From Acutalibacteraceae bacterium (GTDB lineage Bacteria; Bacillota; Clostridia; Oscillospirales; Acutalibacteraceae), in assembly GCA_045647525.1 (NCBI GenBank), contig JAZRMK010000048.1, positions 7,928-71,927 on the forward strand: a stretch of 64,000 nt of DNA. The letters run 5' to 3'. The notes below the pieces were generated by a model. It was not told the DNA's origin. It ran no database searches and saw only the letters and a list, made by a program, of their open reading frames with translations. Below, piece after piece: positions 40,568-46,192 of the stretch. The position numbers were made by a program, and so were the translations under genes. Each line of letters starts with the position of its first letter. Positions within the stretch are counted from its first letter, which is position 1.

Positions 40568-41641
40568 ATGATTTTAAGATTCAAAACCGTAATTATTACG
40601 CTTATCTGTTTTTTGTTTGGCATGGCAGTCCTTATGTTCTCTCCCTTCGTGCGTCGGGGAATAGCAAACGGCATTGATGTGTGCATCACAACCGTGATTC
40701 CTTCTTTGTTTTTGTTTTCCTGCGTTTCCTGCTTTGCCGTAAAGTCAGGGATTTGTTATAACATCGGCAAGGCATTCGACAAATTCTCAAAGCCACTTTT
40801 CAACCTTTCGGGAGAAGAGTTTGCGGTGTTTTTGTTTTCCTGCGTTTCGGGATACCCAGTGGGTGCCTCACTCGTCACCGAGCTCTATAAATCAGGAAGA
40901 ATCTCCCAAAATAAAGCCGTTTTAATGACCAACTTTTGTGTAGCTGCAGGTCCTGCATTCATTTTAGTCGCGGTGGGTGAGATCTCACTCGGCAGCCGTT
41001 CGGACGGACAGAGACTGCTTGCAGCACACGTTATATCGAGCGTACTTTTGGCAATAATATTCGGCGTGTACTCGCGTTTTTCTAAAACCGACACCGACAA
41101 AAGTATCGGTCTCAAACCTTTTTCACTGACACCCCAGTCAACCACCGCTCTTTTCGTTGACAGCGTGACCGAAGCCTCAAAGAACATCTTTAAAATCTGC
41201 GGTTTTATTGTGGCATTCGGCGGAATCGGGGGTATGGTTTCGGCCGATAATCTTCCCGTATCTCCTTTTTTTGCCAACCTTGTGCGTGCACTTTTGGAAG
41301 TGACGGTAGGAATCGACCTTTTCGGTCGCGGCAGACTGGCTCTTTTGGCGTTTTTGCTTGGGTTCGGCGGAATTTCAGTGCATTTTCAGGTTTTGAGCGT
41401 CACAAGGGCTTTGAAAATAAAATACTTCCCGTTTGTTTGCACAAGACTGGTTCACGGTGTTTGTTCGGCATTTGTGATTGCTGCTTTTGAAAAAATTTTA
41501 CCCCGAAGTATCGACACACTCGCACAAAGCAACACTTCGCCCGAAATCAACGGCAGTCCCTTTTCGGTCGCGGCTCTGCTGCTTATGGGAATCACGCTCA
41601 TCGTTTATTCGAAACGGCAACGGCGAATTTCGGCGAAATAG
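40568..41641 (+). CDS. ylbJ: Sporulation integral membrane protein YlbJ (nucleoside-recognition/Gate-domain family)
   Basis: Polytopic membrane protein. The N-terminal pattern GI..C..TVIPSLFLF is typical of YlbJ. Confidence 0.6.
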   Translation: MILRFKTVIITLICFLFGMAVLMFSPFVRRGIANGIDVCITTVIPSLFLFSCVSCFAVKSGICYNIGKAFDKFSKPLFNLSGEEFAVFLFSCVSGYPVGASLVTELYKSGRISQNKAVLMTNFCVAAGPAFILVAVGEISLGSRSDGQRLLAAHVISSVLLAIIFGVYSRFSKTDTDKSIGLKPFSLTPQSTTALFVDSVTEASKNIFKICGFIVAFGGIGGMVSADNLPVSPFFANLVRALLEVTVGIDLFGRGRLALLAFLLGFGGISVHFQVLSVTRALKIKYFPFVCTRLVHGVCSAFVIAAFEKILPRSIDTLAQSNTSPEINGSPFSVAALLLMGITLIVYSKRQRRISAK

Positions 41642-41716
41642 CATACATCTTGCCAAATGTTTTAAAATGTGTTATATTGTTGTTAACGGTTACTCTTTTG
41701 TTTTTTAGGAGATAAT

Positions 41717-41935
41717 ATGAACAACAAGAAATTTTTCGATAATACTATTCCGCCTGCCTGTGCCTACTGTGTTCACGGGCAAAGCATTTCGGGCGGGAAA
41801 GAGGCTTTTTGCTTAAAAAAGGGCATTGTAGATGCCACGGATAGTTGCCGTCGCTTTAAATATGATGTGTTGAAACGCATACCTCACTCTGATACTATTT
41901 CAAAGAATTATTCGGCAGAAGATTTTAAGCTTTAA
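41717..41935 (+). CDS. Small Cys-containing hypothetical protein
   Basis: 72-aa ORF with CAYC...C...C spacing. RBS AGGAGA upstream. Confidence 0.5.
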   Translation: MNNKKFFDNTIPPACAYCVHGQSISGGKEAFCLKKGIVDATDSCRRFKYDVLKRIPHSDTISKNYSAEDFKL

Positions 41936-41961
41936 TAAATGACTGTTTTTGAAAATAACTA

Positions 41962-41990
41962 TTGACAAACCTCTTGGTTATGGATATAAT
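41962..41990 (+). promoter_or_regulatory. Promoter of the tRNA-His/tRNA-Gln pair
   Basis: TTGACA, 17 nt, TATAAT (full consensus), about 35 nt before tRNA-His. Confidence 0.7.
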
Positions 41991-42024
41991 AGTCGATGTG
42001 CCGAAAAGGCACGGTTTAAGATGT

Positions 42025-42102
<78 letters not shown>

Positions 42103-42126
42103 CTTTTTTTATACCATTTTATATAT

Positions 42127-42201
42127 TGGGGTGTCGTCAAGCGGTAAGACACAGCACTTTGACTGCTGCATTCGTAGGTTCGAATCCTGCCACCCCAGCC
42201 A
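42127..42201 (+). tRNA. tRNA-Gln (anticodon UUG), CCA encoded
   Basis: Acceptor TGGGGTG/CACCCCA, anticodon stem CAGCA/TGCTG with loop CTTTGAC, T-arm GTAGGTTCGAATCCTGC. Confidence 0.88.
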
Positions 42202-42270
42202 AAAAAGGAAGCACACCTTTGGGTGTGGTTCCTTTTTTCGTTTCGGGGTATTCGCAGGATTCCAATTTTT
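42184..42270 (+). repeat. Direct repeat copy A (87 bp): last 18 nt of tRNA-Gln plus its terminator and 3' flank
   Basis: Identical by eye to 42382-42468: ATCCTGCCACCCCAGCCAAAAAAGGAAGCACACCTTTGGGTGTGGTTCCTTTTTTCGTTTCGGGGTATTCGCAGGATTCCAATTTTT. Confidence 0.9.
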
Positions 42271-42381
42271 CGTCGAAGCAGCTGTAAAGCCGCGATAGGC
42301 TTTGCGGTCTGCCCGAGTCTCGAGTACGCACAGTGCGTCGGGCACCGTCCGGGACGGTCGGCGAACAAGCGAACGCAGAGT
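42271..42381 (+). other. 111-bp GC-rich, hairpin-rich insert between the two repeat copies
   Basis: Visibly much more GC-rich than its surroundings. Nested stems: AAAGCC/GGCTTT, GCCCGA/TCGGGC enclosing ACGCAC/GTGCGT, and ACCGTC/GACGGT. Confidence 0.8.
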
Positions 42382-42468
42382 ATCCTGCCACCCCAGCCAA
42401 AAAAGGAAGCACACCTTTGGGTGTGGTTCCTTTTTTCGTTTCGGGGTATTCGCAGGATTCCAATTTTT
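42382..42468 (+). repeat. Direct repeat copy B (87 bp): orphan tRNA-Gln 3' end plus flank
   Basis: Same 87 nt as 42184-42270, offset by 198 bp. The 5' three-quarters of the tRNA are absent. Confidence 0.9.
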
Positions 42469-42570
42469 TGTATTCGTGCCAAGTAATTTAAGGATATATT
42501 TAAAGTGACTCGGTTGTCGGGTCGCTTTTGCTTTATGGGAATGTTATCAACAAGCGATGATTAAAGCGTT

Positions 42571-42606
42571 TATAGCCCAAATTTATCCTAATGTACTTGT
42601 TATAAT
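42571..42606 (+). promoter_or_regulatory. Island promoter motif copy 1 (TATAGCCCAAATTTATCCTAATGT, then TGTTATAAT)
   Basis: The conserved CCAAATTTATCC box begins 21 nt upstream of a TGnTATAAT extended -10, ahead of the small ORF at 42663. Confidence 0.55.
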
Positions 42607-42662
42607 ATAAATATAATCCGGCATAAGCCGTTGAGAAAAACATTTTTGGAGGTACATTTATC

Positions 42663-42770
42663 ATGGCTAAGACGAAATCAGGAAAGAAGTTTGTAAGAAT
42701 TGGTGGTTACACAAAGTCAAATGGTGGCAAAGTCAAATCGCATTGCCGTTCCACTCCCAGCAAGAGATAA
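42663..42770 (+). CDS. Small highly basic protein (35 aa)
   Basis: MAKTKSGKKFVRIGGYTKSNGGKVKSHCRSTPSKR. GGAGG lies 10 nt upstream and a hairpin follows. Too short for the ORF track. Confidence 0.4.
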   Translation: MAKTKSGKKFVRIGGYTKSNGGKVKSHCRSTPSKR

Positions 42771-43010
42771 GCAAAAAACGCACGATGGGATAAAAAACCC
42801 ATTGTGCGTGCTATAATATGCACATAATCCATCAACAGAAAGGACACATGCTATTATGAAAATCCGCGTACTTATTTGAACCTTCAATACGCTTTAATCG
42901 CAAAACTCTCCATTTTGACTGCAACATGGAGAGCTGAAAGACAAATATATAAATGATATAATCAAATAAATGTATGGGCAAATAGGGGTGATTTTTTTGA
43001 TAAAAATTAT

Positions 43011-43418
43011 ATTGATAGACACGATATTATGTCCTTGGAAGAATCTACGCGTGTTACTGAACAGGATAGAGAAAAATACATTAAAATTGCCGAATAACTA
43101 TCATGGATTGACAGAAAAAAGAACGGATATCATATTATAGTGCCTAAAAATATTTCTGATCTCAAATATGAAGGAGAAATACAACATAATTGCGTTTATA
43201 CCAATAGATACTATATTGATGTTATAGATCATCACTCCATAATTGTGTTTTTAAGAAAAGAAGAGTATGTCCCATTTGTCACAATCGAATTCGATTATGA
43301 AACCTTTGAAGTTCTGCAAGCCTTAGGAAAATACAATAAAAAAATTGACACGGAACTGTACCGATACATTGTCAATTTAGGGAAGCAGTTATATTACGAA
43401 ATGCATAACCATCAATAA
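43011..43418 (+). pseudogene. Degraded PcfJ-like gene (only the C-terminal domain remains as an ORF, 43140-43418)
   Basis: The 92-aa ORF has the PcfJ-type core L.YEGE.QHNCVYT..Y......H.SIIVFLR......FVTIE. Related reading frames upstream are broken by stops (...EKYIKIAE*, then *LSWIDRKKNGYHIIVPK). Confidence 0.55.
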
Positions 43419-43562
43419 AAGTAACACGTTAAAATACATATACTCAACAAAAGCGAGGGTGATTTTAAATCAACCTCGCTTTTTGTTACGAATAGGACAA
43501 TATTGTCCGAAAGTTCGTGGTACAATATATTTGTAAAATAAATTAAATGAGAGGTAATTATT

Positions 43563-44219
43563 ATGAATGAACAAATGCGCAACAATTTAACTCCCCAAGG
43601 GTACATTCGTCAGATGTATGCAGAAACCGTAAATGGTGAATTTAAGGTTGGGTATACAGATCCTGACAATGATTCCGTTGAAGAAGAAAGAACATTTTAT
43701 GTGAATTGGACTGCGGAGGATGCAGAGAAAACAGTACAACGATATAATTTGCTGACTTTTGCATTGGCACGTATTGGCCGGCTTCACGATCAGTTGAACG
43801 ATGAAGAAAGCAGAAAGCAACTTCTTTCAGAGGCGGATCTTGAAATTTATAATACATATATTCTTCCTTATGAACCGATGAAAGTAAATTGGGAAGAGCT
43901 GTATCCCATTACTCCTTGTGAGCCAGATGAGCTGATGTCACTAATCCAGGAGATCCACGAACGCAGCAGATATGGAGATTTGATCGAAGAGGAAGAACTG
44001 CTCTGGAAACAGTACTGCATGTGGAAAGAAGAACAGAGTCAGAAAAGAATTCCTTTTAACCGCCGCTCCTGTGCTGATCTGATTACAAGGGCATCGCGTT
44101 TTGAAAGATTGATCAGCTTGGGTGCACCTGAAATCATTGTAACTGAGGAAGGCCGCCTGCTTGCAGAAGAAATGGTGCTTTATTATTTCGGTAAAGAAGA
44201 GCCGATCATTTGGGATTGA
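43563..44219 (+). CDS. Hypothetical protein (218 aa, acidic, helical)
   Basis: Long ORF in the island orientation. No family recognised. Confidence 0.55.
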   Translation: MNEQMRNNLTPQGYIRQMYAETVNGEFKVGYTDPDNDSVEEERTFYVNWTAEDAEKTVQRYNLLTFALARIGRLHDQLNDEESRKQLLSEADLEIYNTYILPYEPMKVNWEELYPITPCEPDELMSLIQEIHERSRYGDLIEEEELLWKQYCMWKEEQSQKRIPFNRRSCADLITRASRFERLISLGAPEIIVTEEGRLLAEEMVLYYFGKEEPIIWD

Positions 44220-46000: not shown

Positions 46001-46192
46001 ATGACTCTTGAACAGAAAAAAGAAGCTTTGCGCAATGCAGCCTCAAAAGAGTTAAGTAGCGTGTATGACCTTTATAAATGGAAGAAAGTAAAGGGCTGTG
46101 AAAATTCATTCGTGTTAAGTGGAAAGTGTGGCTCGGAAGTACGCAAATCATATCTTGTTGGTTGCAATAAGTGGAGGTCAGTATATGGATAA
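46001..46192 (+). CDS. Small hypothetical protein (63 aa), apparently translationally coupled to the WYL-LRR gene
   Basis: RBS AGAGGGA upstream. The stop overlaps the downstream start in ATGGATAA. Confidence 0.5.
   Translation: MTLEQKKEALRNAASKELSSVYDLYKWKKVKGCENSFVLSGKCGSEVRKSYLVGCNKWRSVYG

Follow-up and report, generated by a model that had tools for sequence, protein, structure and literature searches.

What is the GC-rich, folding DNA that stands between two copies of a tRNA 3′ end, directly behind the tRNA-Gln gene of this Acutalibacteraceae genome? tRNA loci are classic landing pads of mobile DNA, and the first-pass annotation of the 64,000-nucleotide stretch analysed here (the window) had offered three explanations for the segment: a collapsed integrative element next to an accessory island, a small non-autonomous mobile element with a long target duplication, or a structured RNA co-transcribed with the tRNAs. 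The features of the locus are given below by window position.

41962–41990, plus strand: sigma-70 promoter of the tRNA-His/tRNA-Gln operon, consensus TTGACA-17-TATAAT (sequence scan).
42026–42102, plus strand: tRNA-His(GUG) (ARAGORN / cmscan).
42127–42201, plus strand: tRNA-Gln(UUG), complete (ARAGORN / cmscan); the junction falls between nt 58 and 59 of the T-loop (42183/42184).
42184–42270, plus strand: repeat copy 1, 87 nt, comprising tRNA nt 59–76, the terminator and a degenerate upstream adaptor (repeat search).
42201–42238, plus strand: intrinsic terminator 1, with a symmetric hairpin (A-tract, stem, T-tract) whose arms lie at 42201–42217 and 42222–42238.
42254–42260, plus strand: GCAGGAT, the 5′ strand of the closing helix, which pairs with ATCCTGC (tRNA nt 59–65) at 42382–42388.
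42269–42381, plus strand: the core, termed E, 113 nt, with a 5′ tail TTCGTCGAA, helix P1, helix P2 around P3/P4, and a 3′ end GCAGAGT (covariance model).
~42278–42313, plus strand: P1 hairpin of core E.
~42319–42325 with ~42373–42380, plus strand: P2 of core E, CTCGAG with CGCAGAG, enclosing P3/P4 at ~42332–42367.
42382–42468, plus strand: repeat copy 2, 87 nt, the second unit of the tandem in truncated form (repeat search).
42382–42399, 42399–42436 and 42437–42468, plus strand, inside repeat copy 2: a tRNA 3′ pseudo-end, terminator 2 and an adaptor remnant, respectively.

A repeat search confirmed the exact 87-bp duplication (42184–42270 and 42382–42468); extending the comparison to 42184–42273 and 42382–42471 gives 99% identity, with the first 87 nt identical. 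As annotated, the repeat opens in the T-loop of tRNA-Gln and includes 18 nt of the tRNA up to CCA: its first base is A59 (TTCGA/AT), 18 nt before the tRNA 3′ end, and the window contains two copies of this 18-nt end (ATCCTGCCACCCCAGCCA) and no more, where 0.02 would be expected. Past CCA the repeat takes in the terminator hairpin and 32 further nt. The flank of about 50 nt is indeed repeated exactly, but its last ~30 nt are the degenerate upstream adaptor of the element and not neutral sequence. Likewise, 111 bp separate the two copies, but the conserved core defined by the covariance model is 113 nt long and has its first two bases inside the repeat. The GC-rich insert folds at −46.8 kcal/mol, with z = −1.9 for the insert alone and z = −3.2 when the flanking 7-bp closing helix is included. 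The GCAGGAT of this helix is the reverse complement of the T-stem 3′ strand (a GCAGG match) and not a copy of the T-stem 5′ strand (GTAGG). Repeat copy 2 ends where a core would start, and the window content amounts to 1.44 tandem units of 198 bp, a full unit (42184–42381) followed by the first 87 nt of the next. What the 87-bp repeat represents is the start of a further tandem unit that has been truncated. The only promoter-like site 5′ of the element in the window is that of the tRNA operon at 41962–41990; terminators lie at ~42212 and ~42410, and the interval from this promoter to the second of them contains no other promoter.

Directly behind the second repeat, the window continues into an AT-rich accessory stretch of 35–40% GC (42469 to ~50000). 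Its ORFs include a 728-aa protein with WYL and leucine-rich-repeat domains (46119–48305), a 420-aa fragment resembling Pol III-alpha (48463–49725) and several others without a Pfam match. At the start of this island, 42664–42771 on the plus strand encodes a 35-aa lysine-rich peptide (MAKTKSGKKFVRIGGYTKSNGGKVKSHCRSTPSKR) behind a GGAGG ribosome-binding site.

The first-pass annotation had proposed a search for further copies of the 111-bp sequence, and copies were obtained from the genome itself, the family and the class. BLAST of the insert against its own 1.38-Mb assembly returned diverged copies on contigs C20, C44 and C9. A first covariance model built from these three sequences and the window copy added a fifth copy on C3 and two partial ones, giving five full and two partial copies in this genome. 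With the covariance model, 8 of 151 genomes of the family carry the element, each belonging to a different genus; with an improved model (R2), 20 of 400 sampled genomes of the class were positive, from five families, four of which are placed outside the order of the window. Copy number ranges from 1 to 9 per genome. An exact-motif scan of a genome collection yielded 112 stretches, every one of them titled as a MAG or an uncultured bacterium and most labelled Acutalibacteraceae, Oscillospiraceae, Feifaniaceae, Ruminococcus or Clostridia; the source names that could be read point to animal guts. Metagenome contigs contributed ten further stretches, one of which is a chance match within a coding sequence. 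Viral contigs, phage records and plasmid records gave 0 matches to the core. The annotation had also suggested looking for an Rfam identity, and no family matches the insert: a cmscan of positions 41000–44000 against Rfam 15 (E ≤ 1) reported the two tRNAs and chance matches elsewhere, with none on 42269–42381. A literature search found no description of such an element. The insert is one member of an undescribed, dispersed, non-coding family of structured elements that trail tRNA genes in gut Clostridia.

The secondary structure of this family is supported by compensatory change. RNAalifold applied to 63 distinct cores returned four helices, P1, P2 (CUCGAG with the 3′-terminal CGCAGAG), P3 and P4; across these cores 94.4% of cells are paired, and 26 of the 31 pairs show changes on both sides. 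The covariation score was 0.524, compared with 0.06–0.11 for slid partners, and none of 500 shuffles reached the observed value. In P2 a double compensatory swap (CUC/GAG to CGG/CCG) touches the very last nucleotides of the core. Well-kept copies have an additional 5′ hairpin, P0 (GAGAAC..GTTCGTC), which is degenerate in the window. Full well-kept units fold with z-scores of −4.8 and −5.0, beside the −3.2 of the window copy, into a closed multi-branch junction, in which the closing helix is a T-stem mimic formed from T-stem sequence of the adjacent tRNA. Counts of G-U versus A-C combinations weakly favour the plus strand, and for this reason the structured form is likely an RNA of the tRNA strand, with single-stranded DNA as the alternative. 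The first-pass annotation had named a lack of other copies and a lack of covariation as points that would tell against its reading; both copies and covariation were found.

Members of the family are bound to tRNA genes by a common frame, in which the tRNA terminator is followed by an anti-T-arm adaptor, the ~110-nt core and a tRNA copy starting from nt 59. In nearly all copies away from contig ends, a complete tRNA on the same strand ends 60–90 nt 5′ of the core, which sits behind the tRNA terminator. For about 60 of 84 motif matches the same-strand tRNA end lies 61–87 nt upstream, the others being contig ends or tandem second units. At least 17 anticodon species are used, among them Gln (2), Tyr, Ser (4), Glu, Pro, Arg (4), Lys, Trp, Thr and Ala, and every copy inspected locus by locus lies on the tRNA strand. 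A second terminator commonly follows the element.

The 3′ end of the core is invariant (..GCGCAGAGT / ..GCAGAGT) and abuts the tRNA copy. In 47 of 50 loci the sequence past GAGT aligns best from exactly 18 nt before the tRNA 3′ end, that is, from nt 59. Of the 5 T-stem positions in this copy, 4.62 agree with the cognate tRNA, compared with 2.49 for non-cognate tRNAs. Its length is bimodal: 23 loci hold the whole 18 nt to CCA, and 30 loci hold the first 7 nt only, these 7 being 6.2/7 identical and the acceptor part matching at the chance level of 3.1/11. On the other side of the core, the adaptor consists of 5–7 nt complementary to tRNA nt 59–65, followed by the GAGAAC that pairs with GTTC(G)TC at the core 5′ end to form P0. 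At 9 of 61 loci the adaptor is lengthened to the antisense of the whole tRNA 3′ end, including TGG, and at none of the 23 loci with a full downstream 3′ copy do the two occur together. A long stretch in inverted orientation, covering the whole tRNA 3′ half, was considered as a constant part of the unit and rejected because of its restriction to 9 of the 61 loci.

The tRNA-Gln locus was compared between relatives, as the first-pass annotation had advised, and the element proved to be present in two congeners and absent from three. In the latter (G151, G164 and G170) the tRNA-His/tRNA-Gln site consists of the tRNA and an ordinary terminator, with no adaptor. In G159 the site is occupied, the terminators on either side of the element differ and the repeat is the 18-nt tRNA end alone; in G168 it is occupied by two full units and a third that is truncated right at the core start. 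No orthologous empty site was found for the tRNA-Lys copy of another genome (G067), where synteny is not conserved. About one third of all loci contain a partial or full second unit, truncated on the right at variable points. Duplicated target lengths are 7, 18 or 54–198 nt. A fixed long target-site duplication was rejected, given that the repeats are 7 nt, 18 nt or whole or partial units.

Copies at different tRNAs of the same genome are somewhat less distant from one another than pairs taken at random (0.266 versus 0.308, p = 0.01), some of their cores being only 8–14% apart, and the nearest relative of the window copy is the C20 copy of its own genome. Mean divergence within a genome is ~27%; by this measure the within-genome copies appear to be old, with no sign of recent bursts. 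Between such same-genome pairs, homology runs from GGTTCG to GAGT-ATCC, which are the universal T-loop-flanking bases, and adaptors and terminators are locus-specific.

Two tandem arrays deserve separate mention. In L057 (from G168) and in the array on contig C25 of G092, the core, T-tract and adaptor are identical among units, and the internal units have a heavily diverged acceptor/CCA part and terminator 5′ half. Such divergence beside identical cores exceeds what neutral decay would be expected to produce, and suggests either homogenisation of the core block or error-prone joint formation. The third unit of the G092:C25 array (L022, oriented positions 700–830) keeps the ends GGTTCGGCGAC (5′) and ATGCCGACGGAGAGT (3′) around an interior that is an unrelated ~65-nt GC-rich hairpin, a chimeric variant.

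The C20 copy of the window's own genome (L009, positions 1–2870) is an orphan without a tRNA, 24 nt past the stop codon of a 549-aa large serine recombinase with Resolvase, Recombinase, Zn ribbon and DUF4368 domains. The recombinase gene follows an ORF fragment that by eye resembles a phage major capsid protein, and the prophage/host junction is at or near the ATCC that normally adjoins the T-loop junction. Our reading of this arrangement is that a prophage inserted next to an orphan unit.

Another tRNA-linked cassette, unrelated to the element, was also encountered, right behind tRNA-Gln in two stretches (L053, from G151:C18, and L054, from G164:C25) and downstream of the element in two others (L082 and L099). 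It combines a terminator with a long inverted repeat (CT-rich/AG-rich), a GCTTTGC..GCAAAGC hairpin, a promoter and a small gene that starts MNSPLLDKSLDFA and whose product may be of the four-helix-bundle / 23S-rRNA-IVS-protein kind.

No gene was found to accompany the element. Clustering of the ORFs around ~100 copies revealed no recurrent ORF within 1.5 kb, or within stretches of up to 8 kb around each copy, where only syntenic housekeeping genes were seen; no integrase was found near any of the ~100 copies or among the ORFs of the island downstream. Protein families were then compared with the presence of the element. At the Pfam cut-off, TnpB (PF07282) was detected in none of ten element-positive genomes, with one weak sub-threshold match in the genome of the window, and the IS110 DEDD transposase (PF01548) in none of ten, with weak sub-threshold matches in one. 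Y1_Tnp (PF01797) showed no association, with matches in four of ten genomes that carry the element and in four of ten that lack it. Reverse transcriptase (PF00078) was present in only two of ten positive genomes and missing from G092, which has six copies. The sole reverse-transcriptase-like ORF of the window's own genome (C69:9158-9772, minus strand, a 326 aa frame, RVT_1 50.6 bits) is not near any of the copies.

Several candidate identities were set aside on these results. Models based on reverse transcription (TPRT-like insertion, a PBS-like antisense copy, snap-back synthesis) are disfavoured because reverse transcriptase is absent from 8 of the 10 positive genomes. A class C group II intron or other retroelement was rejected on the same distribution of reverse transcriptase, found in 2 of 10 only, and on the lack of a match to any Rfam intron model. 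Omega-RNA, bridge-RNA and HUH/PATE ideas were rejected since the cognate proteins do not co-occur with the element. The element lacks the hallmarks of a MITE: its ends, TTCGTCGA.. and ..GCAGAGT, are not inverted repeats, and there is no fixed short target-site duplication.

Taken together, we favour, with modest confidence, a model in which the element is a non-autonomous, site-specific T-loop insertion module, rarely mobilised by a putative trans-acting factor, with a core that would be transcribed by read-through. A mobile reading of this kind is the best supported because the family is dispersed, insertions are polymorphic among congeners and the junction is invariant. On these same points the small non-autonomous mobile element of the first-pass annotation holds up, but the fixed long target duplication that was part of it does not. 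According to this model, the element would enter tRNA loci at T-loop position 58/59, and upstream of each insertion a functional tRNA 3′ end would remain, with a displaced pseudo-3′-end downstream of it. The putative factor would act in trans and only rarely, and the core would probably be expressed as RNA through read-through of the tRNA terminator. Two routes could have led to the tandem in the window: the direct repeats derived from the tRNA may have recombined unequally or slipped, or the element may have re-inserted at the regenerated tRNA, with truncation following in either case.

Some observations are harder to reconcile with mobility. A mobilising enzyme was not found, with reverse transcriptase, TnpB, IS110 and Y1-HUH proteins all failing to co-occur; the copies are old, at ~27% divergence; and JGI metagenomes contained no strain-level empty allele of the window locus. 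The model also gives no mechanistic account of how the tRNA-specific adaptor is refitted at each new tRNA. Finally, cores are preserved in the 30 loci whose acceptor copies have decayed, where 96% of the core is still paired. An intact core beside a decayed pseudo-3′-end resembles the outcome of purifying selection in place, as would be expected of a functional RNA more than of a selfish insert in decay.

This retention of structure in old loci is the strongest argument for the main alternative, which we regard as possible though rather doubtful, namely that the element is a resident, functional non-coding RNA linked to the tRNA. It would be a read-through product whose T-arm mimic and anti-T-arm adaptor act on the upstream tRNA or on processing enzymes, in processing, stability or regulation, and the tRNA fragments and the 87-bp repeat would be by-products of recombination between the real T-arm and the mimic. 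An unequal crossover between tRNA nt 59–65 and the 7-nt frame copy would alone yield the observed tandem of core E, 3′ end, terminator and next unit. Such an RNA would also fit with the shared tRNA strand of the inspected copies, a window core that has no promoter of its own, the usual second terminator downstream, and an adaptor and first 7 nt that remain matched to the cognate T-stem. More generally, the structured RNA co-transcribed with the tRNAs that the first-pass annotation had listed is compatible, as a prediction, with the covariation, the tRNA strand and the lack of an intervening promoter. A host-beneficial RNA, however, is expected at conserved orthologous positions, and the patchy, polymorphic, multi-target spread of the family is the strongest argument against this alternative. 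The element is found in 5% of genomes, in the family as in the class; the orthologous tRNA-Gln site has it or lacks it among congeners; at least 17 anticodon species are served by 1–9 copies per genome; and same-genome cores at different tRNAs can differ by as little as 8–14%.

We consider it unlikely that the element is a mobile element free of protein genes which finds its target through its own transcript. Here the anti-T-arm adaptor would pair with the T-arm of the tRNA gene or of the tRNA itself, and the core, either a ribozyme itself or the handle for a universal host enzyme, would join the 3′ end to nt 59. To our knowledge, guide-programmed, T-loop-specific, 'intron-like' RNA-directed mobility has not been described in bacteria.

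Quite improbable, in our view, is a CIME-like att-att scar or minimal integrative derivative, in which the core would be the attP arm for a tyrosine integrase acting in trans and the partial unit would reflect accretion by the AT-rich island. Direct repeats of the tRNA 3′ part do flank the element in the window and in 47 of 50 loci; starting in the T-loop and spanning exactly the tRNA 3′ end, they have the form of a classical att footprint, arrays resembling tandem accretion exist, and the accessory island begins right behind the second repeat. Against this, neither an adjacent integrase nor a parent element with a core arm was found: integrases are absent from the island and from the surroundings of every copy, and no larger element containing the core came to light, the viral contigs, phage records and plasmid records all giving 0 matches. 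That four helices covary in a compensatory way argues for a single-stranded structure and not for duplex protein-binding arms, one core serves at least 17 tRNA targets, and the core end (..AGAGT) and the tRNA (..TTCGA) have no common overlap at the junction. A third tRNA-Gln 3′ end that would bound the AT-rich island is absent from the window. The collapsed integrative element by the island that was first proposed is not supported, since there is no integrase and no third tRNA end and the insert is a complete family member.

It is very improbable that the 87-bp duplication arose during assembly through a mis-join at a repeat: the source is a 73-contig MAG and copies of the element, enriched at contig ends in many assemblies, do disturb assembly, but full-plus-partial or full-plus-full units recur across many independent assemblies, the window junctions are canonical (GAGT/ATCC), and an exact repeat of 87 bp is shorter than the k = 141 indicated by the contig names of several assemblies.

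This is a new family of structured nucleic acids, widespread in animal-gut Clostridia, with four covarying helices and no Rfam entry. It also represents a new mode of tRNA-locus occupancy, without a recombinase gene, with an invariant T-loop 58/59 junction and with a frame fitted to at least 17 tRNA species. If the element is the mobile insertion module that we favour, the T-loop would be targeted by a mechanism that is possibly host-encoded or RNA-based; if it is a resident RNA, it would be a regulator or processing module of a new, tRNA-linked kind. In either case the units break MAG assemblies, and their pseudo-tRNA 3′ ends can pass for island boundaries.

The element shares traits with several known systems. 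Like tRNA-integrating islands and CIMEs, it has its junction in the T-loop, a repeat over the tRNA 3′ end that keeps the tRNA intact, and tandem accretion. Unlike them, it is only ~200 bp long and has no genes, no linked integrase and no known parent; a single core family with a covarying single-strand structure serves at least 17 tRNA species, and the repeat is bimodal (7 or 18 nt) or consists of whole units. With MITEs, REP/BIME, RUP and Correia elements and IS200/IS605 PATEs it has in common that it is short, non-coding, multi-copy, structured, non-autonomous and patchy. It differs from them in lacking terminal inverted repeats and a fixed short target-site duplication, in its low copy number (1–9), in its strict placement behind tRNA genes on the same strand, and in that the transposase families do not co-occur with it.

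TnpB/IscB omega-RNAs, IS110 bridge RNAs and group IIC introns likewise combine a structured scaffold with a short adjoining segment that is complementary or identical to the target, and the element resembles such guide RNAs and introns further in its position just past an intrinsic terminator and in a 3′ boundary that falls on target sequence. In contrast to these systems, TnpB, the IS110 transposase and reverse transcriptase do not co-occur with it and no Rfam model matches; its scaffold is also much smaller than that of a group II intron. The last resemblance is to the t-elements of plant mitochondria and to mascRNA, in which, as in the element, a helix mimics the tRNA T-stem; the element also sits in a tRNA transcription unit, and about one third of its loci finish with the acceptor 3′ strand and CCA. 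The T-stem mimic is present as the closing helix, but, unlike t-elements and mascRNA, the element has no acceptor-stem partner and no cloverleaf; its mimic is fitted to the neighbouring tRNA, and the element itself is insertion-polymorphic and multi-copy.
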